From positions 7,750,001 through 7,814,000 of the forward strand of contig CM035352.1 of the NCBI GenBank assembly GCA_020137815.1: a stretch of 64,000 nucleotides of DNA, written 5' to 3'. How positions within the stretch are numbered: the stretch's first letter is position 1; the number at the start of each line of letters is the position of its first letter. The translations under genes were made by a program, and so were the position numbers. Under the pieces are notes generated by a model. That model had not been told where the DNA came from, searched no databases, and saw nothing but the letters and a program-made list of their open reading frames with translations. Positions 1-60,413 of the stretch are shown one piece after another. This DNA is from Hormiphora californensis (Eukaryota; Animalia; Ctenophora).

Positions 1-3000
1 ACCAATCAGAACCACCAGCCAGTGGACATCCTCGAATAACTGTAAGGGGAGAACTTGTTATATTTAGGTGAATGGGTATCATCTCGCTAAGCCCGGGGAC
101 ATAGGGCAAGTAGAGAGATCCTGAGTGTGATGTCCTAACCCAGGAGTGATAGGAATCCAGTACTTGCCGGGGCCGATGGGGGGGGGGGGGGTACACTTAT
201 TTACCGGGGTGATGATTCACCACTGGTGAGCCGTGAGAGAGGAACCCAGTATTTACCGGGGGCTTGGGGGGGGTGTACTTACCGGTGTACACTCCTGTTG
301 ACTATCAGCTGTCTCTTTAACCGCCCTACATCGCTCCATTAACATTTTGGACAGATAGGGAAGGACGGCACCGGTATTGAGCCGGGCCATACATCCTATC
401 ACCTCTAGTTGGTCCCTGTACTTAACACGATCATCTTCCTCCGACTCAAGGTCTATCTGATTTGAGGGGATTGTGTTTTAGAAGTTTATCTGGGGGATAG
501 ATACGGATTTAGAGGTCTATCTGGGAGGGGGGAGACAGATACCAAGTAAGGTGTCTTTCTGATGATATGGGGATCGGGGGAGGAGATAAGTGGATTTGGA
601 AGGGGAGTTTTAGCTGCTGTTAGGGGAGACATTGCCTTGTTCAGACTCAGCCTCATGAACAATACAAGGCTGACAGGTACTGGAAAGAGATGGTGATGGA
701 GCAACTCAAAATTAATCATTGTACCTCTTCCTCCTTCACATTATCATTCCTAATTCCAGTAGGAGAGGCTAGGTGACACTTGACATAACACTCTACCACC
801 CTCAACACTGCCTGGCCAAGAGGTCCACTCGCCTCAGCCCCCTCGTCCGAGTCATTCTGTAGGAGGGTTAACCAGATATCTAGCACAACGTCAACCACAT
901 CTTGAGTGTCTGCTAGCATCTGGAAGAGAGAGGAGTTGTGAGTCAGCTTCTGGAGTACACATTACATAATCTATTCTCAAAGTAACTCCTTGAGAGGGGA
1001 GATTTAGAGAAGTATAATCAGGGAAAAGCACAAGCTACCTCATCATCCCGGGTCGATGCGATCATGACATTGATAGAGAGATCAGTGATGGCTGATATGA
1101 AAGCACCCCAGAGTCCCTTCTCCATTGCTTCCACTTCTGGTGAACTATTGGTCCACAGAAGTTGGCGAACCGCCAGAGACAGCCCGTGGTACTCGTGATG
1201 GGACTTTGTCGCAGAGGCCCTGGAAAAACGGTGAATGAAATCAGAAATGTAGTACAGAAATGTAGTACAACTACTCAATTAGCTTTCATTTTGCTACCAT
1301 CCTCCTGAAATATCGAGACTGAATTAGCATCTTTAATTCACCTGATAACAAGTTTAGTTATGGCAGAGAGATAGGAAGAAAGGAATTGTTCCTGTTCCCC
1401 GGTTGTTGCGAAGATTGTTCCATTTAGTGTTCCTAACTGAACCAGGCACATTCTGGCCAAATGTTGCAGGTCCTGGTGGCTACCAAATGCTTCGTACAAC
1501 TAGGGGGATGATGTGGTCACGTGACATGTATGGAGAACCGGGGTGAGCCTGATGGCATGTTTTTGGTTTTCAATACTCTCGGGGGGGGGGGGGGGGGGGG
1601 CGTCACCTTTTATTTTGCCCATATTTGCCCATATTTGCCCATATGGGCAAAACTGAATTTTCAAAAATCGTGGGACTTTGGGCAAAATGGGCAAAAATGG
1701 GCAAAAAAATAACTCCTGTACCTTACATCATAGGTATATATATATATAGGTTTATAGCCACTATAATCGAAGCAGAATTTCACGCTGAGGAAGATGCTTG
1801 TATTTATTTTGTTCTAGGACGTTTCTGAAACCCATAAAAGCAAAAAAACCTTAAAAAAAATGTTAGTAGAGGGGTTGTAGCACCGGGAGGTAATGAGTAA
1901 ACACACACACACGCATTGAGCAAGCTCAATGTTTAGCTATTCTCCGGCTGGGTATAGGGCTGAGGTACTGGCAAGATATAGTAGGATCGCTACTGCCCAC
2001 ATGTCAAGTTTATTCGGATATACAAGTTTAAAAGGTTGGGGGGTCACAGGGACCGTCTTAGCTTCGCTCCCCGTTAACATTGCCTGTAACCGGGGGTCCA
2101 CTAAGCTCTCATATATACTCGGCCATTACTCCCAACCACTAGTAGTGGTTTTCAGTACCTCTTATACTGGTAAATCCGTATAGAAACAATCCTTGTGTTT
2201 TAATAGCGATCACTCCGTATATCTTGCACTGACCCAGTATTACCACACATTAATTGTGCAATTGGCACTATGGGATTTCTCCACTGCGGCCGGCACTGTG
2301 AGTAATCAGCCACTATATAAGCTACATCTTGGTTGCTAACCAGTCAATACATTAGTAGAGGGGTTGTAGCACCGGGAGGTAATGAGTAAACACACACACA
2401 CGCATTGAGCAAGCTCAATGTTTAGCTATTCTCCGGCTGGGTATAGGGCTGAGGTACTGGCAAGATATAGTAGGATCGCTACTGCCCACATGTCAAGTTT
2501 ATTCGGATATACAAGTTTAAAAGGTTGGGGGGTCACAGGGACCGTCTTAGCTTCGCTCCCCGTTAACATTGCCTGTAACCGGGGGTCCACTAAGCTCTCA
2601 TATATACTCGGCCATTACTCCCAACCACTAGTAGTGGTTTTCAGTACCTCTTATACTGGTAAATCCGTATAGAAACAATCCTTGTGTTTTAATAGCGATC
2701 ACTCCAGTATATCTTGCACTGACCCAGTATTACCACACATTAATTGTGCAATTGGCACTATGGGATTTCTCCACTGCGGCCGGCACTGTGAGTAATCAGC
2801 CACTATATAAGCTACATCTTGGTTGCTAACCAGTCAATACATTAGTAGAGGGGTTGTAGCACCGGGAGGTAATGAGTAAACACACACACACGCATTGAGC
2901 AAGCTCAATGTTTAGCTATTCTCCGGCTGGGTATAGGGCTGAGGTACTGGCAAGATATAGTAGGATCGCTACTGCCCACATGTCAAGTTTATTCGGATAT

Positions 3001-6000
3001 ACAAGTTTAAAAGGTTGGGGGGTCACAGGGACCGTCTTAGCTTCGCTCCCCGTTAACATTGCCTGTAACCGGGGGTCCACTAAGCTCTCATATATACTCG
3101 GCCATTACTCCCAACCACTAGTAGTGGTTTTCAGTACCTCTTATACTGGTAAATCCGTATAGAAACAATCCTTGTGTTTTAATAGCGATCACTCCATATA
3201 TCTTGCACTGACCCAGTATTACCACACATTAATTGTGCAATTGGCACTATGGGATTTCTCCACTGCGGCCGGCACTGTGAGTAATCAGCCACTATATAAG
3301 CTACATCTTGGTTGCTAACCAGTCAATACATTAGTAGAGGGGTTGTAGCACCGGGAGGTAATGAGTAAACACACACACACGCATTGAGCAAGCTCAATGT
3401 TTAGCTATTCTCCGGCTGGGTATAGGGCTGAGGTACTGGCAAGATATAGTAGGATCGCTACTGCCCACATGTCAAGTTTATTCGGATATACAAGTTTAAA
3501 AGGTTGGGGGGTCACAGGGACCGTCTTAGCTTCGCTCCCCGTTAACATTGCCTGTAACCGGGGGTCCACTAAGCTCTCATATATACTCGGCCATTACTCC
3601 CAACTACTAGTGGTTGGGAGTAATGGCCGAGTATATATGAGAGCTTAGTGGACCCCCGGTTACAGGCAATGTTAACGGGGAGCGAAGCTAAGACGGTCCC
3701 TGTGACCCCCCAACCTTTTAAACTTGTATATCCGAATAAACTTGACATGTGGGCAGTAGCGATCCTACTATATCTTGCCAGTACCTCAGCCCTATACCCA
3801 GCCGGAGAATAGCTAAACATTGAGCTTGCTCAATGCGTGTGTGTGTGTTTACTCATTACCTCCCGGTGCTACAACCCCTCTACTAATGTATTGACTGGTT
3901 AGCAACCAAGATGTAGCTTATATAGTGGCTGATTACTCACAGTGCCGGCCGCAGTGGAGAAATCCCATAGTGCCAATTGCACAATTAATGTGTGGTAATA
4001 CTGGGTCAGTGCAAGATATATGGAGTGATCGCTATTAAAACACAAGGATTGTTTCTATACGGATTTACCAGTATAAGAGGTACTGAAAACCACTACTAGT
4101 GGTTGGGAGTAATGGCCGAGTATATATGAGAGCTTAGTGGACCCCCGGTTACAGGCAATGTTAACGGGGAGCGAAGCTAAGACGGTCCCTGTGACCCCCC
4201 AACCTTTTAAACTTGTATATCCGAATAAACTTGACATGTGGGCAGTAGCGATCCTACTATATCTTGCCAGTACCTCAGCCCTATACCCAGCCGGAGAATA
4301 GCTAAACATTGAGCTTGCTCAATGCGTGTGTGTGTGTTTACTCATTACCTCCCGGTGCTACAACCCCTCTACTAATGTATTGACTGGTTAGCAACCAAGA
4401 TGTAGCTTATATAGTGGCTGATTACTCACAGTGCCGGCCGCAGTGGAGAAATCCCATAGTGCCAATTGCACAATTAATGTGTGGTAATACTGGGTCAGTG
4501 CAAGATATATGGAGTGATCGCTATTAAAACACAAGGATTGTTTCTATACGGATTTACCAGTATAAGAGGTACTGAAAACCACTACTAGTGGTTGGGAGTA
4601 ATGGCCGAGTATATATGAGAGCTTAGTGGACCCCCGGTTACAGGCAATGTTAACGGGGAGCGAAGCTAAGACGGTCCCTGTGACCCCCCAACCTTTTAAA
4701 CTTGTATATCCGAATAAACTTGACATGTGGGCAGTAGCGATCCTACTATATCTTGCCAGTACCTCAGCCCTATACCCAGCCGGAGAATAGCTAAACATTG
4801 AGCTTGCTCAATGCGTGTGTGTGTGTTTACTTAAAAAAAATGACCTCTAATTAGACACCTAATACCATTCTGACCGAGTTTTATCAAAGTTTGCGCTGTT
4901 CTCTCACACTTTAAAGAGATGAAATCAAGCTATAGAGTTGAAAAAACGACATATAACACTGAAAATTGCATTTTGCCCATTTTTGCCCACTTTTGCCCAT
5001 TTTTGCCCATTTTGCCCATATGGGCAAAACCGAAATTCGCTGGGATTATGGGCAATGGGCAAAAAAAAGGTGACGCCCCCCCATACTCTCACGTAACGTG
5101 GTATGTATAGGGAGAAGTAGAAAACACGGGAATGCAATTCAATTCAATTCAATTCAAGTGATCTACCTCAACTAGTATTTGTAGAACACGACCCTCTTTT
5201 AGAACAGTCCAGTCTTTACCAGGGGTTAGATTTACAACAGGCATCGAGAGAAAGGAGATCTGGGCTAGCTTCTTAGCTGAAGAAGGGATGACAATCTTTA
5301 TGAAGGAGCACATTACACAGCAACAGTGGCGAGTTAATTGATAAAAAAGGGATTACAGGCTGAAACAACTTACAAAGTTTAGACTTGACTTGGCTTGACT
5401 TACAAAGAATAAAACCGAAATCCCAGCTCAGGATGGTAAAAAGGATGGACATAACTTGAATCCATTGTCGGAGGTGTTGTGAGATGGAACCTGCACCTCT
5501 CAACTTCCCAACCACCTCAACTACTCCAACAAATATCCGATATAGCGGTCCTTTCTGGGGGAGGGATTGTTGGTTGGATTGTGTACAAGTGCCACATGTT
5601 AATTGTAAATTTTAGTAGTGGCTATAATTCTAGAATATAATTTGAGACTAAGGGTTCTAGGGGAAAAGTTCCAATTAATACCCCAAATACCCCCCATCCC
5701 CAATTACCTCGATTTTCTCCTTGCAATCAAGATTGTGCTGATAACTCATGTAACTAGATAACCCCTTATCAGCCACTGTGAACTCAGCCAATAACGCAGA
5801 GGCTATCTCCAGCCCTAACAGTAGTGTATCAGGTCCAGTTAGTAGCTGGCAAACGTTATCCACAAATGTAGGTAGGAACTCAGAAGGTCGGTCGAGGGAG
5901 GATCTTTTGACTATAATGGCTACAGTGTGGAGAATCTGCTTCAGGACATACGCTTGTAAACTGAGAGGATGGAAAAATGTTAACGATGGGTACTGGATGC

Positions 6001-6852
6001 TGGGAGGGGGGGGGGGGGGGTGAAGTCATATCAATGGAATACCAGATTTTATTTGGTGGACTTGATATACCATCAAGGCACCGTTGTTATAATGCTAACG
6101 ATTTGTACCTTGTTTTTCGTTGGTGAGCAAAGTTAAGCAGGAAATCCCGGAGATTATCTACCTCTATCTCCCCCAACAGGGACCACTCTCTCATCACTGC
6201 TTCGCGGAGGGTTGAACACGCCACAAAGTGTAGATATGGCTCATTTGTGCTTTCTAAGGAATGGAAGATGTGTTACTTGGTGCTTTCCGAACGAAAAGCA
6301 TGAGCCAGGATGATACCTTGCCCAAAACTGGCTCCAGCTATGAGTCTGTCTTGCGGCGCCAGAACCCGCTCAGTTCGGTTTGGAGCCGCCTGATAGATCC
6401 AGCTCAGAATCTGAGTTTTTGCAATGTTCAGATGGCGCCGCGCACTGCGCTGCTGACAACTTTCTAGCACGCTGTTTGATGTTCGGGCGCGTTCCGCGAA
6501 GTTGACAAAACGCGCCAAAACTGGTACACTAAGTGGACACACTAGCAGACGAACCAAAACACAGACAACGCACCTAAAACACAGACAACGCACCTAAAAC
6601 ACAGACAACGCACCTAAAATGTGTTTACAGATGACATAAGGTTTTTCTGATCGTTTGAATTTCATCAACAAGTTCTCGGCCTGCTTCCTCTGTTCTCCAG
6701 TCACACCGGCTGAGCCAACCTAAGGGGAGGGAGATGGATTAAATCAAGGAACAGGATTAATTAATTAATTAATTATACAGCTCTGTATCAACTAGTTCAG
6801 TAATTACCGTCATTATACGGGCTGCATCTGATAACTCCTGTAACTGTTCCAT
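1..6852 (-). CDS. XPO4: Exportin-4, multi-exon, runs off the left edge
   Basis: Hand-spliced exons give MEQLQELSDAARIMT / EQRKQAENLLMKFKRSEKPYVICKHILE / REAVMREW / CLVQLGTLNGTIF / YVKCHLASPTG / EEDDRVKYRDQL / LFEDVHWLVVLIG, colinear with recalled XPO4 motifs; GT-AG introns. Confidence 0.9.
1581..5082. mobile_element. Non-autonomous poly-G-ended TIR (foldback-like) element in XPO4 intron 1500-5166
   Basis: TIR G(n)CGTCACCTTTT...TTGCCCAT at both ends; subterminal TTTGCCCATA 10-mers; perfect 8-bp TSD ATACTCTC (1573-1580 and 5083-5090). Confidence 0.9.
1863..4830. repeat. 489-bp unit array: about 3.5 forward copies then about 2.5 inverted copies (palindrome centred near 3608)
   Basis: Units start at 1863, 2352, 2842 and 3331 and are nearly identical; flanked by direct repeat (C)TTAAAAAAAATG at 1850-1862 and 4830-4842. 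Confidence 0.97.
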
Positions 6853-13976: not shown

Positions 13977-14620
13977 GTTTACAAGTTTACAAGTTTACAA
14001 TTAAAGTTTTATTTATAAAGAAACAGGCCTTCCCTGAATGGGTCCACCTAAATAAAATCAAGTTGAAAAACTATCCCTTCACACTCACACTCATCAGCAC
14101 AGCACAGCACATTGAGGCGAAAGGTCATTTGGAAATGGCGGGTACCCTCTGACTGGAGGACGATCGTGAAATCCTGTCAAGTAATTGCCCAATGATGATT
14201 TGAACTGATTCAAGCTCACACAAGAATTGACAGCAGCAGGTAGAGTGTTCCATAAATGAGCTGCTCTTGGACCAAATGAGCAGTGAAATTGATTAGCTCG
14301 TTTCGTTTCTGCTCTATAGGGGTAAGGTGGTGGGACTATCCGCATACCCAGTCTAGCGTGCTGTTGAAATACTAGGTTGGCAGAGTTAGGTACAAAACCA
14401 TGAATCGTCTTCCACACATGAATCAGAATGTAGCGCTGTCTCCGACGCTGAAGGGACATAAGATTGAGCAATTTCAGTCTATCCCAATAGTCATGACCCT
14501 GCATACCATCAAGACGTCTGGTGAAACAACGTTGGACATTCTCAATAGCCTTGATATCACCAGCCTTGGAAGGGTTCCAGACTAGGCAACAGTACTCAAG
14601 AATAGGCCTGACCAAGGCCT
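13977..14620 (-). mobile_element. 5'-truncated CR1/L2-group LINE (end of ORF2, 3' UTR, TTGTAAAC repeat tail)
   Basis: VRPILEYCCLVWNP...IENVQRCFTR...YWDRLKLLNLMSLQRRR; 8-bp tandem tail at 13977-14000; possible AAGGTTT TSD. Confidence 0.85.
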
Positions 14621-14993
14621 GACCAAGGTTTGATTGGAATCTGAGAAATCTGAAATTCTACGATTTAAACCCGTTTAGAGGCAAAATGTGCATCGCATTA
14701 TGCATGTAGGAACATATTCATCGGGCGGGCCTCACAGAGCCTCCCCTCCTATCACAAATTTTCTTGGCTGGCGGCTGCCCGCTCCAAAACCTTCTCTGCT
14801 TCTCCGGCAAAACCCCCCCGATTTTCAGCTGAAAATAAATTTTTATTTTTATTTTTTTCTAATTCACGAACCCCAACACCGCGCTGATTAGCAAATAGCA
14901 TCACTTTTCATTTTTCACAAATTTTTTCACATTTTAGAATTTTTCGGATTTAAAAAAAGTTTCGGATTTTGGCATACGTTGCAGGCCCCTTAG

Positions 14994-19039: not shown

Positions 19040-30143
<11,104 letters not shown>

Positions 30144-33704: not shown

Positions 33705-36700
33705 ATGTTACGGTTGTTAGGAAGGAAGCGGCCCTGTTTTATCCGGCCATTTTCATCTGGTTTTGATGCAGATGCCATCTCTAAAACTCCTGTCGAGGAT
33801 ATCAGGAACATTGGTAATTATAATTAGTTTCTTTTAATTAGTTCTAATCGGTTCCCCCTAATTAGTTCCTTCTTATTAGTTAACCCCGTCATCTTATGTT
33901 AACCCCATCATCTCTTCAGGTGTCTCTGCCCACGTTGATTCCGGCAAGACGACGGTAACGGAGCGAATCCTCTATTACAGTGGTCGGATCAGCTCCATTC
34001 ACGATGTGAAAGGTATATTGAAATCCTTAAATTGTTCTAACCCTCCTTTACATTTTCTCGCGGAGAGGGTTGAACAAATCCCTGTTTAGAAGGTAGAACT
34101 CACTCTAACCTCATGCCCCCCCCCTCTAGGTAAGGATGGAGTGGGAGCCAAGATGGACAGTATGGAGCTAGAACGACAGAGGGGTATAACCATCAAGTCA
34201 GCAGCTACTACCATGTTTTGGGGAGGGAAGCAACTCAACCTGATTGACACACCCGGTCATATTGATTTCACCATGGAAGTTGAGAGGAGTTTGAGGGTGC
34301 TGGATGGGGCCATTCTGGTCCTCTGTGCATCAAGTGAGTAGGACCCTTTGAAACCTTTGTTACCATACCATGTTTTATCTCCTGCACTGTGTGTGCCTTG
34401 ATTGACCCTCTCTGGTTATAACACAGTGTATCTTTAGGTGGGGTACAGACCCAGACGTACACAGTGAACAGACAGATGGAGAGGTACAACGTTCCCTTTG
34501 TATCTTTCATCAACAAGATGGACAGGGCAGGGGCTGATGCGTACACTACTCTACAGCAGATGAGGAATAATATGGGCCTCAATGCGGCATTCCTCTACAC
34601 ACCCATAGGTAGGATCTATGTTGTTTCAAAATTCCGTCTCTGGTCAGTTAGCTATCACCATGGATAAGCGAAGTTAAAATTGGTTCAAATTATGAATCTA
34701 CTGGTACAAAACACAACTTCATCAAACCCCATTAAAACCTATGTTTACTCTTTTTCTAGCTCGTAATACAGTTCTGAGTTCGTGTACATTTCTTCGTCGT
34801 AAACTTTCTTCTATAATGATAGTCTTTAATTAATTTACATATCGTCACAGGCAGTTGTGTAATCTCGTCCATGTGCCATGTCATCCAGGGGGTTCCCATC
34901 AGGCTTGATACACCAGCAGATGGAACCAATGCACTGTCTTCGCTCAAAGTTACCATCACTGTCACATCCCACATAGATACCACCTGGAATAAAAGTGGAT
35001 GGGTTACATAATGCAAAATAATAGTTAGTAGGAACGGTGAGGGGTTACACAATGATACAGGAAGGAATGAATTATGAAAGTAGATATGCTGGGGATAGAA
35101 CCGTTATATATCTGGAACTTTGTTCCAATACAAACTTACCAAATCCTTGTCGTCCTTCATCAAGCATCCTCTCAACATCAGAGCACGCCAGGGGGCTTCC
35201 CTCACACAGGCGGCACGATCTCACACAATTATTCTTCACATAATCATTTGTCTGGCACACTCCCTCAATAGTTTCAGTCCAATGTCGACAATTCTCATCC
35301 TGATCCTGACAGTCCACACCCCCACCATCCTCCAAAGTAACTCCAAACATTTCCTGGAGACCCTGGTTCAGGAGGGCTATAAATGATGGGTGCACTGCAC
35401 AATCTTCCTCAGCAACACAGCTACCATCCATCTCATGTCATTGGTTTATCCCGTGGACACTCACATGCCATGTTACAACCCTGGAGAAATTGTCTTTATG
35501 AAGGAGTAATTAAATAGGTTTGGAATCTGTATTTATAAAGGAGCGAATATTTCAATTTTATAAAGGAGAAACAGCAACCTTTCTCATGTTAGGATCGCGT
35601 TTGAGTCCACAGTACGATGGATGGTCAGCACACTCATTGTATATCATGCCAGCAAAGGGACACGCTGGGTCCTGTGTCTCCTCCTTGTTGAACATGTCAG
35701 GAGTACATCTGATCTCACCCTCTCTGGCCTCATGATACATATCAGTCCTCTTAAATGCTTCCCAGGATTGCATCACGTTACAATTAGTGATCTGAAGGAG
35801 GGTGGTGGATGTGACAACTATAATTCAGGGGACTATTTCCATGGTAACGTGGTAACCCCCGTGGTGACTTACACTAGGGTCTGTTGTCATGGTGACTTAC
35901 ACTGGGTCTGTTGGTGACTTACACTGGGTCTGTTGTCATGGTGGATTACACGTAGTCTGAGCTCCATGACGTACACTGGAGTCTCGTTACATGCTCACTC
36001 AATGGTTTTGCTATGGTGGCGAGTTATACTGCAATTACTTGCATTGGAACTCCAGAACTCAACGTGATCCTCGTCATAACTTCCAATCTCAGTTGTTACC
36101 CTCATGATGTCTACATGTGTACATGTGTCGTCTGTCATTAAACTTGGCTGGTGGACTCCAAATCTAACGTGGACTTTCCGCAATTCAAGGTCGGTCTAGT
36201 TTACACTGACTCAAAACACTACCCGTCTGACTTCTAACACGTAGACATAGAACGCTGTCCCTTCCTTGGTCTTCGGACGTAGTCTAAGTGGGGTCGAGTG
36301 TAGGCATCTTACCTGATCCTAGAGTCACTTCACGCATCGTGGGAACGATATTATTGTGTGTCTGCACATCTGTCTAGTCACATTCTTCTTCACAGTGCTA
36401 TGCAGGTGTGGACAGGTGTATTGGGCTTTTCGTGTGGTGTTTCTGTCACAGTGGTGCGCACAGTGGATGTTCTTGTGGTGTTTCTGTCACAGTCGGTGTT
36501 TCTGTCACAGTGGGTGTTTCTGTCACAGTGGGTGTTTCTATCGCACTGGGTGTTTCTGTCACAGTGGATGTTTCTATCACAGTGGACGGTTTCTGTTACA
36601 GTGGGTGTTTCTGTCACAGTGGGTTTTTCTGTCACAGTGGGGTCTTTCTGTCACAGTGGGTGTTTCTGTCACAATGGGTGTTTCTGTCACGGTGGGTGTT

Positions 36701-41290: not shown

Positions 41291-42959
41291 GTATGGGATA
41301 CAGCGAGTACGGGGTGTGAGAGCTGGTGTGGTTTGGGGTTTGGGGTCTGAACTGGTGAGGTGGGGGACAGCGAGTACGGGGTGTGAGAGCTGGTGTGGTT
41401 TGGGGTTTGGGGAGTTTGGGGTCTGAACTGGTGAGGTGGGGGACAGTGGGTTGGGGGTGTGAGTTAGCCAGGACTTGAGTTTGGGGTGTGCGATGGGGGT
41501 CTGAACTGGGGGAGCCGTTGAGGGAGTTTGGGGTGCGAAGGGGGTAGGAATTAATCGCATGGTTTAGGGTGTATGAGGGGACTAGGAGTGAAGAATTTGG
41601 GAACACTGGACAGTGAGTTTGAGGTGATGTTGTTTTAGGATAAGTAAAGTGATCACGGGGGATGGCGTGTGACTTGTGAGATGATCAGTGACCCTTTAAA
41701 GTGTGTGTTAAACCACGTGTTAACTTATTCTGTCTGTTTTTGATACTTTATATACCGTGATGAACTCGGTTTTCTTCCGTCGTACAAGAAACTAAAATTT
41801 CACACCCATCGCGCTGTACTGCTGTTTAGTAAGCCACTTGAAACGCTGATCTTGGGGCAAACTTTGTAACTTTGCTGTTCGTGCCTGCAGCGGGGGGATT
41901 TTGCTGTGCTGCTACACCGCTGCTTAAATGCTCGCTCACACACATTTCGCTGTCTGCTAGTGGTGCCCCAGTAAATCAGATGATTTAGTGGGACATCCCC
42001 GCAGCAGTTTTTTTCTCAACTTTCATTTGAAAAGCATTTTTGAGAATTTGATGTGATATCTATCAGTTGCAGCTTTTGTGTCGTTTTTGTGACCTCCCTT
42101 ATCAGTAAAGTTTGCAAGCATCTCTCCAATTGTAACACCCTGTGCTCACCTCCTGCTCACCTGTCATGAGTGGTAGCTTTTCTAACCGACTCAGAGTGAA
42201 CAGTGATGAAAGAGTGACAAAGGGGGTATACCGTGAGGTTCAGAGTGAAGTTGTGGACCTAGTGCGAGAACTTTTCGTTCATGTTAAGGAAGCAGATTCT
42301 TTCCCCAAGAATTGGTCTGCTAGTTCAGCTTCCTGTTTCTGGGACAATCTGAAGTGTCCTAGTAAGAGTAAGATCAAGGCAGTGGGAAAACCTGAACTTG
42401 CTGAGTTTGCAGAGAAGGCATGTCGCTTGCTAGTTGAGCGGTGTTACCCAGGGGGGGTGACACGTAACACTTTGTAACACTTTGTAACATGTGCAGAAAA
42501 CTTTTTGTGCACGTTACATGTTACAAAGTGTTACATAGTGTTACAAAGTGTTACATAGTGTTACAAAGTGTTACATAGTGTTACAAAGTGTTACATAGTG
42601 TTACAAAGTGTTACATAGTGTTACAAAGTGTTACATAGTGTTACAAAGTGTTACATAGTGTTACAAAGTGTTACAAAGTGTTACATAGTGTTACAAAGTG
42701 TTACATAGTGTTACAAAGTGTTACATAGTGTTACAAAGTGTTACATAGTGTTACAAAGTGTTACATAGTGTTACAAAGTGTTACAAATTGTTACATAGTG
42801 TTACAAAGTGTCACAAAGTGTTACATAGTGTCACAAAGTGTTACAAAGTGTTACAAATTGTTACAAAAACACAAGGATTTGTAGCGAAGCAAATTTTCAA
42901 TCTTAGACCAAAAATTGATTTTGGAAAAATTTTATTTCTTTTTCCAACAGAAACGTTGT

Positions 42960-45900
42960 TGTAATGGTCATGCTTTGAGAGAATTCGGGAGAATTCCCAT
43001 GTCTTATCAACACATCAAATTATCCCCTTCAAGCTAGGTTTTAACATACCCCTCGTCACCCAGTTGGTTGATGGTTCTTATCAACTAATCACGAGGTTGC
43101 CTAGTCAACAGTACTTAATGCTTGAATCAAACCACCAAATCAGAATTCAGAACATTTACTTCTAAGACAATCCCCGCTCTCATCTTTGTCGATAGCTGTA
43201 TTTCTGTATCCCTTTACCCGCACTTAGTTAGACTTTGTTTTCCCACGTCTTTCCCTTTGTTACCCCTGTCCAGCAAACTCTCACTTCACTGTCTGCAACC
43301 AGCGATCACATCACTGTCTGCGACCTGACCAGCATCACCGAGGAGATCATCACAAGTGGAGCCTGATACGAAATCTCCAAGTAAGTGCATCGAATCATGG
43401 CTAGAACCAAAGAACAAATCCTCGCTGACATCAAAGCACTGAACGACCCTACAATCAAACGTGAAGTAGACACCTTGTTCTCCTCTACAAATGACGATCT
43501 CGCTAATGCAATCAACTCGCTTAGCCTCACAATGTCAAATCCCGTCCCAATAAAACAATTTGAGAAAGGAGGCAATTTCTCCAAATTCTGTAAAAGATTC
43601 TTAGATCATGTCGTGACCAATCAAACCCCGGCCGATTCTGTCTATCTTCTTTTCACCCAGAATATATTGTGTGATGATATGTATTCATCAATCAAATCCA
43701 TCGAACTCACACCAGCACAGAAACTAAATCCAAAGGAATTCATTAAAATATTCCAAGATCATGTTTACGGAGAGAATGCTTTAGTTCTTCGTAATGAACT
43801 CCATTCGTGCATCCAGAAGAAATCCGAAACCATCTCCGAATATGCATACAGACTCAGGGATAAATCATCTATCGCTTATCCTGACAATCCAAATCAGGCT
43901 AATAGCGACTGTCTCATTGTTTTTCTGAGAGGTATAAGCAATGCTGATATAAAGAGAAAGGTGAATGAATCCAACACCATCACCGATTTCTCATCCGCTG
44001 TCAAATATGCTAAAAATCTGGAAAATGTCGAAAAAATGTTGAATCAAAAATCAAACAATCAAGTTGAGTTTGCTCTAGTTGCATCATCTGAGCAATATGA
44101 AATCTCCCGTGCTAACAGTTCCAAATCGAGATCCAGCTCACCTCATCCCCGAAGTTATAGACACAGATCATCATCGCGATCTCCATACCGCGACAGAAAT
44201 CGATACCAATCCCGAAATCGCTCCAGCTCAAGATCAAGATCCTACTCGAGCTCCTCAGACTCATGCGAACGACCTTCCAACTCTCAATCCCGATCAAAGA
44301 GAGATATGAAGTGCCATTTTTGTAAGAAGAAAGGTCATTTCAAAAAAGACTGTCAATTTTACATCAATCAAAAAGGTGAAAGAATCCGAATCACCAAATC
44401 GGGTAAATCAAACAAATCCACCTCAACCAATCGATTTCGGAGTAGGCACTAACAAATCTTCCACGTCAAATATCTCCTACACCGATCCAAATTCAGATCA
44501 TGTCAATGAATTAGGTGTAAATCCCTTTACATCACATAAATCGTCATTCCGAGATTCAGTTATGAAATCTCCCGGATCATGGAGTCGAATTTTCCATGAA
44601 TTCACACACATGTTTTCCGTAACATTTTAACACAAACCTTGATGGTATTCACCCGAATCTCCTTTCCCACAGATAATGCTTGGATTTGCAGTACTTGATG
44701 GTACAATATCAATCCAATTAAAACTCACCGTCTCTTGTTGACACTTCGGAAAGAGAGTCATTCGGTATTTGGTCAGATGACCTGGCATGTTGTATTGCAC
44801 TTTTTTAGTTTCACAGATCCCACATATATTAACACGCTAACTGAAGGTGGTCAGGTCACCCACCTTATCGTTATCAAATCAAGGCACCGGAACACAGCAT
44901 AATGTTACGCACAAATCGTTATGTAATACGAGTTTGTGCTCGGGACTTGTTGCCCAGCTGCTTGAACACTAGTGTCTGATCTAGTTGCAGCACCCACTTC
45001 ATATAGCTCGCCTGATTTTACTATGTTAGCTTAGCACTGAAAGTGCCACCCCGACCGATTTAGGCATCGCTATCGATGTAGTTGGCGTTGATGCCATTTC
45101 AAATCGTAATATACACTGCTTTAAATCTTTGCCGATCTACCAAATCTCGTTGAAAAGATTGAGAATCTTTAGAAATCACACAGAGCATTAAAGCAGTGGA
45201 AGGGACAGTTCTTTTCTTATTCTGTCACTAATAATTAAAATCTAACCGAATCACTCCATCTAGCTAATCATCAATTATGTCCTCATCGAAAATATTGAGG
45301 AATCCTGAATCTGATCTGTTCAGCCGTCATACCTAAATCAGAAGTTAGTTCCTGCGTTCCCACCAAATTCCGGTTCGCATACTAACTCAGCAAAATAAAT
45401 CATATTCCGACTGCTGCATCATCAAATGGATTGATCATCTATACCTAATCATCCAAATCCGGCTGCCGTATCCTCTTATGGATACAAAATCTACAAATCG
45501 TGCCAAAAATGTTGGGAAATAGTTGCCAAAATGTTGGGAAATAGTTGCCAAAATGTTGGGGAAGAAAGAAGAAAGAAGATGGCGACGAGACGGAGAACAA
45601 CGAGAAGAGAGTGTCAAGAGTGTGATAGACTCTAATATGAGATGCAAAGACTCTAATATGAGATATAATTTTTAATTTTGATTTGTAATACTACGATTGG
45701 GAAAAGATTCTCTTTTCTTTTTCCTAGAGGGATTTGTAATGGTCATGCTTTGAGAGAATTCGGGAGAATTCCCATGTCTTATCAACACATCAAATTATCC
45801 CCTTCAAGCTAGGTTTTAACATACCCCTCGTCACCCAGTTGGTTCTTATCAACTAATCACGAGGTTGCCTAGTCAACAGTACTTAATGCTTGAATCAAAC

Positions 45901-46122
45901 CACCAAATCAGAATTCAGAACATTTACTTCTAAGACAATCCCCGCTCTCATCTTTGTCGATAGCTGTATTTCTGTATCCCTTTACCCGCACTTAGTTAGA
46001 CTTTGTTATCCCACGTCTTTCCCTTTGTTACCCCTGTCCAGCAAACTCTCACTTCACTGTCTGCAACCAGCGATCACATCACTGTCTGCGACCTGACCAG
46101 CATCACCGAGGAGATCATCACA
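42960..46122 (+). mobile_element. Non-autonomous Ty3/Gypsy-type LTR retrotransposon
   Basis: LTRs 42960-43354 and 45735-46122 (TG...CA, nearly identical); 4-bp TSD TTGT; PBS-like TGGAGCC after the 5' LTR; short purine tract AGAGGGA before the 3' LTR. Confidence 0.93.
43385..44452 (+). CDS. gag: Gag protein
   Basis: Q...ETISEYAYRL major-homology-like motif, FLRGI, RS-rich linker, zinc knuckle CHFCKKKGHFKKDC. Confidence 0.88.
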   Translation: MHRIMARTKEQILADIKALNDPTIKREVDTLFSSTNDDLANAINSLSLTMSNPVPIKQFEKGGNFSKFCKRFLDHVVTNQTPADSVYLLFTQNILCDDMYSSIKSIELTPAQKLNPKEFIKIFQDHVYGENALVLRNELHSCIQKKSETISEYAYRLRDKSSIAYPDNPNQANSDCLIVFLRGISNADIKRKVNESNTITDFSSAVKYAKNLENVEKMLNQKSNNQVEFALVASSEQYEISRANSSKSRSSSPHPRSYRHRSSSRSPYRDRNRYQSRNRSSSRSRSYSSSSDSCERPSNSQSRSKRDMKCHFCKKKGHFKKDCQFYINQKGERIRITKSGKSNKSTSTNRFRSRH

Positions 46123-48479
46123 TTGTATATCATCTTATTAAGTACAAAGAATCGATTACCAATGAAAAAAAGTCGATTGGGTCACAACTCACAGGTGACT
46201 CAGCACATTGGGGACCTCTGAGAGGCACAATACTTCTAATATCACTCTTAAAACTTTACCGTTGTCTAAAGTTCATATTTTTCTTTACCAAATGGACTAT
46301 TTCAGCCCTGATTTCCACAGTCGATGACATCGGAGGCTCAAAACATCCGCAAATTAGTAAAAAAGTGTATGTTTTAACCCTAGAAATGATGTAAAACTTT
46401 TAGATGTGTTCTAGAAAGACACCAAAGTCGTTCAAATTACTTATTCACCAACCGTTGAAAATTTGCTTCGCTACAAATCCTTGTGCTTTTGTAACACTTT
46501 GTAACAATTTGTAACACTTTGTAACAATTTGTAACACTTTGTGACACTATGTAACACTTTGTAACACTATGTAACACTATGTAACACTATGTAACACTTT
46601 GTAACACTATGTAACACTTTGTAACACTATGTAACACTTTGTAACACTATGTAACACTTTGTAACACTTTGTAACACTTTGTAACACTTTGTAACACTAT
46701 GTAACACTTTGTAACACTTTGTAACACTTTGTAACACTATGTAACACTTTGTAACATGTGCAGAAAACTTTTTGTGCGCGTTACATGTTACAAAGTGTTA
46801 CAAAGTGTTACGTGTCACCCCCCCCTACCCAGCTATTGATAAGCTGTCTATTGAAACTGAGGAGTGTGAGAGGAGAATCATTGACTGCCAAGAGGAGCTA
46901 ATCACCGCACAGCGTTTGTTAGTTGAGGCACAGGACCGCTTAGTTAAGCTACAGTGTCAACTGTTGGAGAAGAGAGACGGTGAAATTAGTGCTGTGCAGA
47001 CTACCGCTGAGAGGGAGATGAAATCATTTGCTAATGTTCTCCAGAAGAATTGTGAGACTGCCCTAGCACCGCAGCGAGTACGTCAGGCTATTGCTGTAGC
47101 GACAGAGGACAGGACGAGCAATGTTATTGTTCACGGTCTGTTTGATGACCCGCTTGAGAACGATCAGGATCTGGAGAGCGAGATCAAGAGAGTGTTTAAC
47201 AGTATGGGTGCTTGTATTACTGGTATTTCCAGTATGAAGCGACTTGGGAAGTATAAGGATGGCTCTGACCGGCCTGTAAAGCTACGTTTATGTGGCAAAG
47301 ACTTCCGAGATCAAATACTATCCAGTAAGAAATCTCTGAAAAACTCTGATAGGCACAAAAGTGTCTATATTTCCCCCTGACCGTTCTCCGGAGGAGAGAG
47401 AGGAGAGGAGGAAGCTGGTGGTAGCGCTGAAGGAGAGGAAGGAGGCGGAGCCGGGGAAGACATTTGGGATTCGAGGGGGCAAGGTGGAGGAAGTGTGAGA
47501 GACAGTACGAGACTGCTGTGTTTGAGTTTGTGTATTTACAAATTAAGTTAGGTTTTGAACTGGACTTTTGGGCATCAGAGCACCGGACATTTAGATGGGA
47601 TTTAGAACATTTTATTCATTTTTAAGACTATAGTTATTTTTGCAATGGTGAACCGCTCTGATTGCCGTGTAGTTTACTAGTTTTTTAGTTCTGGTAACCT
47701 ATATGGTATGAGCGTGTATATAAGTACGGATATTATTATTATTATTATTATATCCATCATGTTTCGTTGAACAAAACAAACAGTTTGGATATTGGAGCTG
47801 CTTCTGAGGACGCGTCATCAAGTGAATTACAGGTGAGAGAGGGGGTACATGGTATTACTAATTTACCATTGGTAATATAATAGTAGTCAGGTGAATGAAT
47901 GGGAAGAACGATTATACCGCATACAGACCAGATACATCTTCTTTATAACTATCACTTAAATAGCTATCATATCACCAACACACCCCACATCAGATTGTTA
48001 TGTTCGAGGGGGCTGTCAACTAGTGTTTAGTATTGCTGTACACACACACCCACACCTGCTGCACAAGATAGCTTAAACTGTAGTAACTCTTCCATATTTA
48101 GTCAGATCATCAGGGAAAGGGAGGGAGAGAGAGAGAACAAGAGAAAGGTATTATATAGAGAAAGGAGATATAATAAGACATAATATATAACATGTAGGGA
48201 AGGTCAGAGAGATTCCTAGAAAGATCACTTGCTGAGTAACAAAGAAAGACTAAATTGAAACTCGTATTTCAGGGAGAGCACCTGTCGCACACCATCAACC
48301 ACCCCCTCCATCCCTCCACCCCAACCACCCCTCCACCCCCCCCCCCCACTTCCCCACACCATGTGACACAGTAACTACTCGTGTGATTATTCACAAATAC
48401 ATATTGGACTATATATATATACTATACAGTAGTCATGTATTAAATATGTGTAATAGCAGCTCTCACTAAGATTTATACC

Positions 48480-55407: not shown

Positions 55408-57061
55408 ACACACACACACACACACACATACGAGGGGAAAATAAGAGGACACAAAGGTCAGAACAAAAGCCCAAAACAATAGCCTCCATAAAATTGCGAT
55501 GGTTCCCTCTAACCGGCTGTTAGCACCAAGGCTGCAGAAACGAGTGAAAGCTCGAGTTCTAGTCTGAAAAAACTTGAGCGGGATAGTCTGCGAGCTCACC
55601 ATAATTTTTCCGGGAAATTTTATCTCTCTCTCTTTATGAGTCTCTTTCCCCAAACCTTCTCTCTCAGCTCTTCCTTCCTTAATTTCTCTCTCTTTCTCTC
55701 TTCTTCTCCACCCCTCACCCCCGTTTTCCCCTTCTCTCCCCAAAAGCCTTTGTGTACAGCTCACAGAGGGCTTGTAGTACACTAACCCCAGGTCGGGGTT
55801 ACAAACAGAGGCCGAGGTTCCGGGGGGTCTGGAAAACTTTCCAAAACAGCAGTGAAATATGAGAGTTGAGAGAGGAACAAAAAAAAAAAGGGGTGGGAGA
55901 AAGGGAAGGGGGATGGGGAAAAGGGGAGGAAAGATACATGTATAGCGATAATTTCCCCCCCTATCCCCAATCTACTCTCTCTTTCCCTACTTTCTCCTTT
56001 ATTCGCTTTATTTTCTCCTTCCCACGCCAAACACCGGGGGCGCGGTCAGATAAGCAAGAGCCGGGTTAGGTGGTGGTCCCTGGAGGAGAGCTAGGAGCAG
56101 CAGAGAGGAGGGGGGGAGAGAGAGAGATAGACGAGAGAGAGAAGAGTAGAGAGCACAAGAAAGCGAGCGAGGAAAAGAAAGAAAGAGTAGCGGAAAGAAA
56201 AAGATGGGGGAGAGAGAGGAAGACCGAGAGATGGAAAAGAGAGAGAGAGAAGGGGAGAACGCATTCGGCCTAAAGGGGTTAGTGGAAAGTGGTTGGAGAA
56301 GCTAAAAGGGGTGAGGGGGGTTTAAAGAGGGTTAGATTAAAGGGAGAGAGAAATAGAGGTCTAGATATAATGCAATACTTTCAAGAGAAATAAATGAAAT
56401 CGCTGCATGATTCAATGTCCCCTGTTGATGATTAGTTTCCCGAACACAGAAAAGTTTTGGGACTACCACTTGATCCCTGGTTAATTTAAGAAACTTTTCC
56501 ACATTGACACTCGAACAGAGCTCCCTTTATTGGATGTAATGGCTTTTTTGGTTTTTTTAAACCAAAGATAACGTTTTAAACAACCTAGATACTGGGGCTT
56601 TCGTACAAAAAAAAACGGTTTTTTGGTTTTTGAAAAAACCAAATAATACGGGAAGAAAAAAAATTAAAAATCGGCTATTAATTAAAGTTTTCCGTTTGGT
56701 CGAGTAAATTTTAAAATCTAAATTTTTATTAAAAGCGTTTAATAAAATTTAAAAAATTTGGTAGGGGTTTTTTCGAAAATTTGAAACCGGGGGGGCAATT
56801 GGTCCTGTTTTGAAAAAGTCTTGTGCAAAATGTTAAACCGCGGGCAAAAGGGGTAATATTTTTTTTTGTGAGCTTTTTTTGTCCCCTTTTTTCCCCAAGC
56901 GCCAAATTTTTTACGTGGTATTGCAGGCATTTCATTGGTCCAAGCAGGTAAAGAGGACCAATCTGAATTGAGGATTATCAGTGTGTGTTCCTTTGTACTG
57001 TGGTGCTTAATTTAGAACTTGGTTTTTGACCCCTGAGCGCACTATTGAGACAGAACACGAA

Positions 57062-58106: not shown

Positions 58107-58383
58107 GGGTCACCACACACCAAAGTTAAAATTAAAATTAAAATTTTAATTTTAAACCCGCACACACCAACGGCCGTTAAAATGTCTCTCCCCATTCTAA
58201 AAGTAACAATCTCACGCACGATTTTGACGGTCGCGTTGGATGACAAAATTTTAACACGCCGTTAAAATCGCGCGCGAGATTGTTACTTTTAGAATGGGGG
58301 AGAGAAATTTTAACGGCCGCTGGTGTGTGCGGGTTTAAAATCAAAATTTTAATTTTAATTTTAACTTTGGTGTGTGGTGACCC
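58107..58383. mobile_element. Palindromic PIF/Harbinger (Tourist-like) MITE inside the transposase
   Basis: GGGTCACCACACACCAAAGTTAAAATT TIR; TAA TSD; removing it restores TARAK|GLTSE. Confidence 0.9.
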
Positions 58384-60413
58384 TAAGGGTTTGACATCTG
58401 AGGTGGTTAACTTGTTCTTTGATCTTGCTGAGCGGAAAGCGGACGAAGGCGGGTATAGAGACATTAAACAGCGTATCTGGAACTGCGACGAAACGGGACT
58501 CTCCACTAATGGAGCTGGAAATAGCTTGATATACAGACGCGGTACTAAGGACGCTCAACTTCTTGCGCCAAACGAGGGCAAATCCCAGTACACAGTTTTA
58601 TTCGCGTGCAATGCTAGCGGGGACTTTATGCCACCGTACATTGTCTATAAAGCGGAGCATCTGCATGATACATGGGTAAGGAACGGTCCTGAGGGCACTA
58701 TGTACAACACATCCCGTTCTGGATGGATGGAGATCGAAACGTTTGCCGAATGGTTTTGCAAAATGTTTGTACCGTTCGTCAAAGATTACGAGAAGCCCCT
58801 TGTTCTATATTTTGACGGCCATGGCTCCCATCTTTCAGCAGAGACAATCCACGCAGCAATTGACAACCATATATTCCTTATATGCTTACCAGCACACACA
58901 TCAGGTGCTCTCCAACCGTTAGATGTATCTGTCTTCAAGGGTGCGAAGGCTGCGTGGACCAAGATTCTCAGTCGATTTTACAGAGAGTCCAGACACGAAC
59001 ACATCAAAAAAGAGCATTTCCCTGCTCTTGTCTCGGATCTGTTTAAATTTATTACAACTCATGCCGGGGCTGCGGTTAACGGATTCATAAAGACAGGGTT
59101 GTGTCCTCTTGATAGATCAATCATACCTAAAGAAAAGATAATTCTATCGGCCACAACAGTAACTCAGGGACCCTCCACTTCTAGTGACATTCTACCAGCA
59201 ACTCCAGTGACACCCAAGTCAGCTATGCGCAACGCTATCATTTCGACACTTGCCCCAAAGCTGTCAGAGACAACAGCTGCAGCTATTACTAACGGGAAGC
59301 AGAGTCGACGGCGAGTTCAGCGAAAAGGCGGTGAATGTTTATCAGAGCAATCAGTCCTGGAGAGAATTAAGGAGGCCGATCTGGAACGCCAGGCAAAAAA
59401 GAACAAGGCAAAAGTGGTTAAAATTAAAAGTGCCGGAACTAAACCTCAGAAGTCTGGTAAAAATAAACTCATGGTAGTAGGTAAATTGGATCGATCTGAT
59501 GAGGATAATGATACTGAAGAGGGAAAAAAGGTTGACTTTATCCCCCGCCCAGCGGTACCACCTGTTACTCCGACTAGAACTCTGCGTTCTAGGTCCAGGC
59601 TAACCTTGCAGGGATGGAAGTGATGTTCCTACTTCTAGTTTCAACCCTGCATTTGAGAATGCCGAATATTTTTATTTAATTTAATACATTTTTATTACAC
59701 ATAGGTACATGTTTATTTACACCGTGTTCATAAGCTTCGTTTCTTAATAAATGTGTTATTGAAGTGTTTTTACTTCAAAATTAACTTAAACCCTCTCTAT
59801 TTAGCCTAACATGACGATTAGACGCCTCTAGATCAAGAACTGGTGAGTTAAGAAGGGGTTTTAATAGACAATAGTCAACTTAGTATTAAATAGGAAAATC
59901 TAACAAACTAAGGGTCTATATTATTTGTCCCAGAGTGGTCTACTTTGCCCCAGAGAGGTGTACCACTTTGCCCCAGAGAGGTGTGCCACTTTGCCCCACG
60001 GTCACAAAATTGACAATCAAGACAACAAAATTGACAATTTCTTGCAAATTTTTATACCAAATTTGAGAGATAAAAAGACCTAACTGGTACAGCAGTTTGA
60101 AACCGAAAAAAAAAACTAAAGACAAGGAGTTTGATATGATACGAGAAAAAATATGAACATAGATGCACAAGACTAGCTGCATATCATAATTGATATGAGA
60201 GCAAGAACAAAACCTAGATACAAAACCTAGATACACACAAGACAAGGAGTATAAAAGAACTTGCAGATATACATTAGACAAGGATCAGCATGATATGAGA
60301 GAAAGAAAAAGATAGAGGGTACCTCCATTGCCTCTGGCTGCTGCAAGAGCTCTCAAAGGTGCCATTATACCTAACATGGTGATTACTCTAAGCTCACATC
60401 TCTTTTCGTAGTG

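Follow-up and report, generated by a model that had tools for sequence, protein, structure and literature searches.

The locus and its surroundings

The window, that is the whole 64-kb stretch of DNA which was analysed, carries near its start an exportin-4 gene on the minus strand (256..6272), with a nested insertion in one of its introns and exons in order on both sides. Compared with 5DLQ, these exons correspond to residues 56-107 (E 1e-6) and 105-188 (E 1e-6) and, weakly, to residues 270-307 (E 0.12) and 445-487 (E 0.025); a fifth candidate stretch showed no match to 5DLQ. The outer layer of the insertion is a non-coding host element (1581..5082), which measures about 520 bp, has terminal inverted repeats and is flanked by an 8-bp duplication (1573-1580/5083-5090). 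It has G-run termini and 10-bp subterminal repeats, and related sequence is frequent in sequencing runs of the host. This element is split by the inner insertion, a two-armed array in which a unit of 489 bp is present in about six copies, the first at 1863..2351.

Further mobile or otherwise recognisable sequences are spread over the window. At about 42450-46810 lies another element of the foldback type, whose long inverted arms consist of 10-bp repeats; they enclose a frame of 355 codons (43385-44452) which has no match in Pfam and in which a motif like a zinc knuckle can be seen by eye. The 459-codon frame at 58244-59623 (plus strand) encodes a DDE_1 transposase domain, and the stretch at 35075-35437 (minus strand) shows a weak match to a ShK-like domain (E 0.0004). 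At 14094-14657 (minus strand) lies a fragment which we take to resemble the C-terminus of a CR1/L2-type LINE; it has no match in Pfam.

Architecture of the array

The left arm (1863..3604, minus strand) comprises 3.56 units in forward direction, namely three full copies followed by unit positions 1-274, and with the minus strand as putative element sense, the 3′ end of the element would be located at 1863. The right arm (3603..4831, plus strand) comprises 2.51 inverted units, running from unit position 284 to 1, through one full copy, and from 489 to 34-36, with a putative 3′ end at 4829-4831. Both arms meet at 3603..3604 with a microhomology of 2 nt, within a near-palindromic hairpin of unit positions 272-288 (2134..2150 in the first copy), at which they are joined in copy 4; a perfect fold-back is missed by 3 nt. 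The array is flanked by a 13-bp, A/T-rich target-site duplication at 1850..1862 and 4830..4842 (both plus strand), and the first 2 nt of the right copy also fit the unit. This 13-mer occurs exactly twice in the 64-kb window. The starts of the arms are 33-35 nt apart within the unit, and the 33 nt present at the left end only (1863..1895, minus strand) form a “tail” between the two putative cDNA start sites at unit positions 1 and 34-36. Homology to a primer amounts to 2 nt or less at either array end.

The copies are identical except for unit position 355, where the five copies covering it read G, AG, A, A and A. The base A accounts for less than 5% of the depth in runs X2 and X6. An interpretation of the G/AG/A pattern as a ligation scar read by a reverse transcriptase was set aside, since A is this rare in the family and a polishing error fits equally well. 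The inversion may also have arisen by a simple fold-back of a single cDNA, yet this requires the mismatch at unit position 355 and a slip of 3 nt. The unit has no coding capacity, its longest stop-free frame being 87 codons. A 17-nt match to the unit at 23219-23235 is embedded in unrelated sequence and does not extend.

Predicted folding of the unit

In the sequence-only reading the unit was described as a large structured RNA, densely self-complementary beyond chance and with crossing, pseudoknot-like helices. All 13 pairs and hairpins listed there are exact Watson-Crick complements within 1863-2351. The excess over chance is modest, with 37 perfect helices of at least 6 bp against 24.3±4.8 expected, a number reached by three of 200 shuffles. 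It is not significant at 7, 8 and 9 bp: 11 helices of at least 7 bp were counted against 6.3 expected (reached by 14 of 200 shuffles) and three of at least 8 bp against 1.5 (45 of 200), and the count of 9-bp helices was reached by 15 of 200. Folding of the whole unit on both strands, in linear and circular mode, likewise gave modest values between -1.8 and -2.5: relative to 100 dinucleotide shuffles, the MFE z-score was -2.06 (linear) and -2.26 (circular) for the plus strand and -2.52 and -1.83 for the minus strand. The claim of dense pairing was overstated, and what is above chance is one rod.

This interrupted rod (1971..2227), in which unit positions 109-174 are paired with 295-365, is predicted on both strands, most of its helices having probabilities of 0.87-0.99 on either strand. 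Its z-score of -4.46 (plus) and -4.87 (minus) lies below all 24 background windows, the lowest of which reached -2.76, and below each of 63 shuffles matched for selection (lowest -4.43); when the real unit was subjected to this selection, the result was -3.5 for the plus and -6.6 for the minus strand. Among 13 local windows of 120 nt, none passed a z-score of -2.1. A hairpin beside a CA run (1914..1931) is predicted with a probability of 0.87 on the plus and 0.40 on the minus strand, and its stem is kept in the loose ends of divergent family members, as judged by eye.

The crossing helices are no more frequent than expected by chance, and most of them compete with the rod, so that a pseudoknotted architecture is not upheld. 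A packing score allowing crossings had a z-score of -1.7 on the plus strand (reached by four of 150 shuffles) and -1.0 on the minus strand (27 of 150). Adjacent crossing motifs of 5+5 bp are found four times in the unit against a mean of 1.2, with at least one in 59% of 500 shuffles and at least four in 39 of them. Pairing probabilities of the crossing helices range from 0 to 0.56 and are mostly near 0. In the circular ensemble, where pseudoknots cannot form and helices are ranked as nested alternatives only, two of the 13 listed helices reach at least 0.98 on both strands, and the GAGGTACTG, CTGGGT, ATATAGT and TCACAG helices have a probability of 0.00 on both. Two pairs among the listed helices use the same bases.

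Natural variation adds to the picture of a structured RNA. Nine natural substitutions sum up to -9.3 (plus) and -8.3 kcal/mol (minus), where +2.8 and +1.1 would be expected (p 0.007 and 0.04), and thus stabilise the fold of both strands alike; the test excludes three indel rows as well as rows outside the unit, and several variants come from single low-depth contigs. None of the nine is a two-sided change in the rod. What remains of the large structured RNA is a weaker form, consisting of one rod, stabilising variants and an insertion anatomy that implies an RNA template. A list of complementary words within 489 nt is weak evidence for a ribozyme.

Search for ribozymes

That the unit matches no recognised ribozyme was borne out. 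Scans against Rfam gave no match, either for the whole window at the gathering score or for 1800-2900 and 2245-2345 at an E-value of 10, and an intact known core is absent. HDV-like, twister, hairpin, pistol, hatchet and twister-sister cores were searched by Rfam at an E-value of 10, those of HDV, twister and hairpin also by custom descriptors, and none of them passes. Three loose HDV-type matches on the minus strand with an A/U-rich P1 were judged to be chance without a shuffle control, and a twister-like stretch at unit position 213 has no partner strand. In by-eye likenesses to hatchet, pistol and twister sequences, the order is wrong or the partner strand is missing. The likeness to group I is indeed only fragmentary, since an S-like 10-mer occurs alone, with no R and no match in Rfam.

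The case of the hammerhead is different. Its CTGANGA core is literally absent on both strands, as had been noted, but a motif similar to a minimal hammerhead with one substitution was missed on the minus strand. This degenerate motif of minimal type I (2270..2313, minus strand) consists of a 4-bp helix I, CUGAUUA, a bulged helix II and GAAAUC, with U at core position 8. The topology of helix I, helix II and GAAA-UH is present; the core pair 3-8 (C-G or U-A) and G10.1-C11.1 are both missing, C3 being combined with U8, and no variant of this U is listed in runs X2, X5, X6, X7 and X15. A bulge-free search misses the motif. A relaxed descriptor, which allows an unpaired base before helix II and one core substitution, gives one match in the unit, on the minus strand, and is matched by seven of 3000 shuffles, a p-value that is optimistic because the descriptor was written after the motif had been seen. 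One further match in the window, at 56422, corresponds to the background rate. For the segment concerned, a plain hairpin (-15.5 kcal/mol) is favoured over the hammerhead fold (-3.0 kcal/mol), and helix I had a probability of 0 in four folds of the growing transcript. With U8 the core halves are mutually complementary, so a plain hairpin could mimic the motif. A decayed relic is the likely interpretation. A new ribozyme is possible but unsupported.

The family in sequencing runs

The unit or a part of it was found in 20 of 24 listed sequencing runs from 13 studies, the best being DNA runs of one organism and marine metagenomes; eight runs were examined in detail, and runs X17-X20 (shares <0.2) were not used. 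Two host runs contain 2995 and 772 contigs on the stretch, and the family is plainly repetitive and dispersed in the host. In run X6, the summed contig depth, which does not equal copy number, declines from about 580 times that of the flank near unit positions 20-80 to 32-117 times beyond unit position 240, a weak hint of truncation. Two separate metagenome studies (X5, X7) yielded contigs with the same head-to-tail junction, and the unit, which contains no DNA of its neighbourhood, is thus not a local stutter. In run X5, a 519-nt contig closes on itself.

Evidence at the RNA level is faint. Two metatranscriptome runs contain one contig each with a depth of 4-5, and the sample behind X5 was also sequenced as RNA in two runs, which contain almost none of the words of the unit. 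A 23-nt pattern had no matches in viral contigs, a pattern scan of metagenome contigs had none either, and blastn gave no match in phages. A looser pattern matched 14 loci, each with a likeness of at most 37 nt and all judged to be chance.

Probable mobilisation by a Penelope-like element

The array is probably a single insertion of a dispersed non-coding family, reverse-transcribed from minus-strand RNA of the unit by a borrowed protein of a Penelope-like element (PLE). If the cDNAs were primed by the chromosome, the template was the minus strand, since both arms read the plus strand inward from the flanks. The hammerhead-like motif is located on this same strand.

In the proposed course of events, a dimer of the PLE protein would place nicks in the two strands at a distance of about 10-13 bp, and the chromosomal 3′ ends would each prime a cDNA at one of two internal starts, unit position 1 or 34-36. 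As the cDNAs exceed the length of the unit, the template may have been a circle or an uncut multimer; a circular template was proposed for PLE tandems by Cervera and de la Pena (PMC4209133). The near-palindromic hairpin would be the place where both cDNAs meet and are joined. A likely role of the rod is to stabilise or present the RNA. The hammerhead-like motif probably descends, in decayed form, from a PLE terminal repeat, and copying likely does not depend on it.

The individual steps have counterparts in described PLEs. Their insertions show partial tandems, an inverted 5′-truncated copy and a tail of 30-40 bp at one end, and non-autonomous Chlamys elements form multicopy head-to-tail insertions (Craig et al., PMC8557442). 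The purified PLE protein of Anolis cuts A/T-rich DNA, after which both strands are extended; it uses two internal starts on the RNA without primer homology, the stretch between them constituting the tail (Frangieh et al., PMC11167929). Since uncleaved RNA is the main template of this purified enzyme (PMC11167929), an undescribed self-cleaving motif would probably not be needed for copying. The one insertion studied here combines tandem copies and an inverted 5′-truncated copy with a tail of 33-35 nt and an A/T-rich target lacking primer homology.

Other family members point in the same direction. Four start-side junctions with foreign DNA are listed, at unit positions 2 (X12), 33 (X15), 189 and 457, two of which are at most 1 nt from the two start sites (chance about 0.0009), a small count drawn from 19 of 221 loose ends listed in one set and all three in another. 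The far ends are scattered (unit positions 50, 68 and 463). Further inversions lead from unit position 64 to 188 (X6) and from 102 to 305 (X12), one of which, being from an RNA run, could be a library artefact.

The host is probably a ctenophore; the best match of a neighbouring gene, at 89% identity, bears a label of the form used for Pleurobrachia gene models. Among ctenophores, PLEs are on record from Beroe and Mnemiopsis. Within the window, none of the 65 open reading frames scanned matches the reverse transcriptase or GIY-YIG families of an autonomous PLE. Six short motifs of the unit were compared with the Naiad and Chlamys consensus sequences of the published supplement (PMC8557442) and none was present in them, and the 3′ ends of the Beroe and Mnemiopsis Naiad elements, as displayed, show no clear likeness to the unit by eye. 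At the 3′ end of Naiad_Mley in this supplement, GAAAC is located upstream of CTGATGA, by eye a permuted hammerhead-like core, and the table notes a hammerhead core for the Beroe element only.

Alternative explanations

Reverse transcription can also be attributed to a LINE enzyme that copied a read-through transcript of a tandem satellite and produced inversion and duplication by twin priming. The A/T-rich target, similar to a TT/AAAA site, the 13-bp duplication and the CR1/L2-like fragment in the window would agree with it. In classical twin priming, the end of the first cDNA coincides with the beginning of the second. In the array, the arms start at unit positions 1 and 34 yet end at 274 and 284, neither end has a poly(A) or simple-repeat tail, and the two recurring start sites are left unexplained, so we regard a LINE origin as unlikely. 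A self-replicating viroid-like circular RNA, endogenised and equipped with an undescribed ribozyme on either strand or on both, was the implication of the sequence-only reading, and we consider it very improbable. Such an RNA would account for a rod on both strands, for the self-closing contig in X5 together with copies exceeding one unit, and for nine variants with a net stabilising effect; a genomic tandem, however, also yields a closed contig. Moreover, the sequence is best represented in host DNA runs, which contain variant contigs by the thousand, whereas the RNA evidence is faint, the z-score of the whole unit is only about -2, and neither an Rfam family nor a passing core of HDV, twister or hairpin type is at hand.

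The inversion at a hairpin with microhomology would also fit an origin at the DNA level, in which a small circular DNA, derived from a satellite or similar to a CRESS satellite, was multiplied by rolling-circle or template-switch repair and then inserted into a break. The unit contains a nonamer (CAGTATTAC) at position 373, and a part of it occurs in one viral-fraction metagenome (X13). But the nonamer is located off the apex of a stem-loop, contrary to what applies to CRESS origins, and is altered in a relative (loose end in X7); the 23-nt pattern and blastn found nothing in viral contigs and phages, respectively, and neither target duplication nor recurring starts are predicted by such an origin, for which there is only a slight probability. 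That the inverted array is an artefact of the assembly or of long-read fold-back appears most improbable. A near-perfect palindrome of 1.2 kb invites this suspicion, as does the possible polishing error at unit position 355, and none of the contigs displayed spans the stretch. An artefact would nevertheless not be expected to have exportin-4 exons in order on both flanks, nested flanking duplications of 13 and 8 bp, arms of unequal length, or inversions in other records.

Comparison with known elements

Given its borrowed-PLE origin as the preferred reading, the unit is most likely a non-autonomous, PLE-mobilised, retrozyme-like element with the minus strand as its RNA, and it appears to work like a non-LTR retrozyme or a non-autonomous PLE (cf. 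bioRxiv 10.1101/2022.05.23.493040). With metazoan non-LTR retrozymes it shares non-coding head-to-tail units, a GC content below 50%, a target duplication of more than 4 bp and a self-paired fold (PMC7229834; PMC7761336; bioRxiv 10.64898/2026.07.22.740005). Its size is within their range of 51-972 bp, and mobilisation by PLEs is proposed for both (bioRxiv 10.64898/2026.07.22.740005). The unit is longer than the tested retrozyme circles (170-400 nt) and differs from non-LTR retrozymes in lacking an intact type I hammerhead. Retrozyme circles are abundant (PMC7229834); the RNA signal of the unit, which comes from contigs of metatranscriptomes, is faint. In the cited papers, the link between retrozymes and PLEs consists of co-occurrence, shared hammerheads and trees of terminal repeats. 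The retrozyme passages of PMC7229834, PMC7761336 and bioRxiv 10.64898/2026.07.22.740005 do not mention ctenophores, and the literature search returned no paper on such elements in this group.

Among the PLEs themselves, insertions with an inverted 5′ copy and a tail, and non-autonomous Chlamys elements such as MRC1, resemble the array in their combination of tandem and inverted arrangement, in a 30-40-bp tail and in multicopy head-to-tail non-autonomous copies (PMC8557442). Unlike Naiad and Chlamys, which target (TA)n or (C)n, the array is inserted into a run of A, and no sequence link to an autonomous family was found among the elements compared there (PMC8557442). The reaction of Poseidon of Anolis carolinensis in vitro is similar with regard to two-strand extension, two internal starts, missing primer homology and an A/T-rich target (PMC11167929). 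Poseidon, however, codes for its own protein, and directly upstream of its starts lies an intact hammerhead assisted by protein, whereas the nearest motif copy of the unit is located 40-120 nt downstream; the start region of the unit is not clearly the AC-rich stem-loop described for Anolis (PMC11167929). The minimal type I hammerheads of PLE terminal repeats also have a 4-bp helix I, an unpaired base before helix II, no helix III and a tandem arrangement permitting dimers, but they contain C3-G8 or U3-A8 (PMC4209133) instead of the C3-U8 found here, where in addition G10.1-C11.1 is absent and a plain hairpin is favoured.

Starting from this comparison, one can conceive of the unit as an RNA circle which parasitises Penelope-type enzymes and is cut and closed without a working known ribozyme, either by a C3-U8 hammerhead cleaving only as a protein-assisted dimer or by another catalytic fold that alternates with the rod. 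We view this as rather doubtful. If true, it would extend retrozyme-like circles to ctenophores and either loosen the core rule of the hammerhead or add a class of ribozymes.

In this insertion, a non-coding tandem element shows the mechanical traces of the PLE reaction, namely priming on two strands and two start sites at a distance of 33 nt, and it suggests that a working hammerhead is dispensable. For assays of PLE priming, the unit could serve as a compact template of natural origin. With respect to the gene in which it resides, the two arms form a near-perfect inverted repeat of 1.2 kb (2375-4831) in the exportin-4 intron. The exportin-4 pre-mRNA would carry a long double-stranded hairpin, a possible source of small RNAs or editing.
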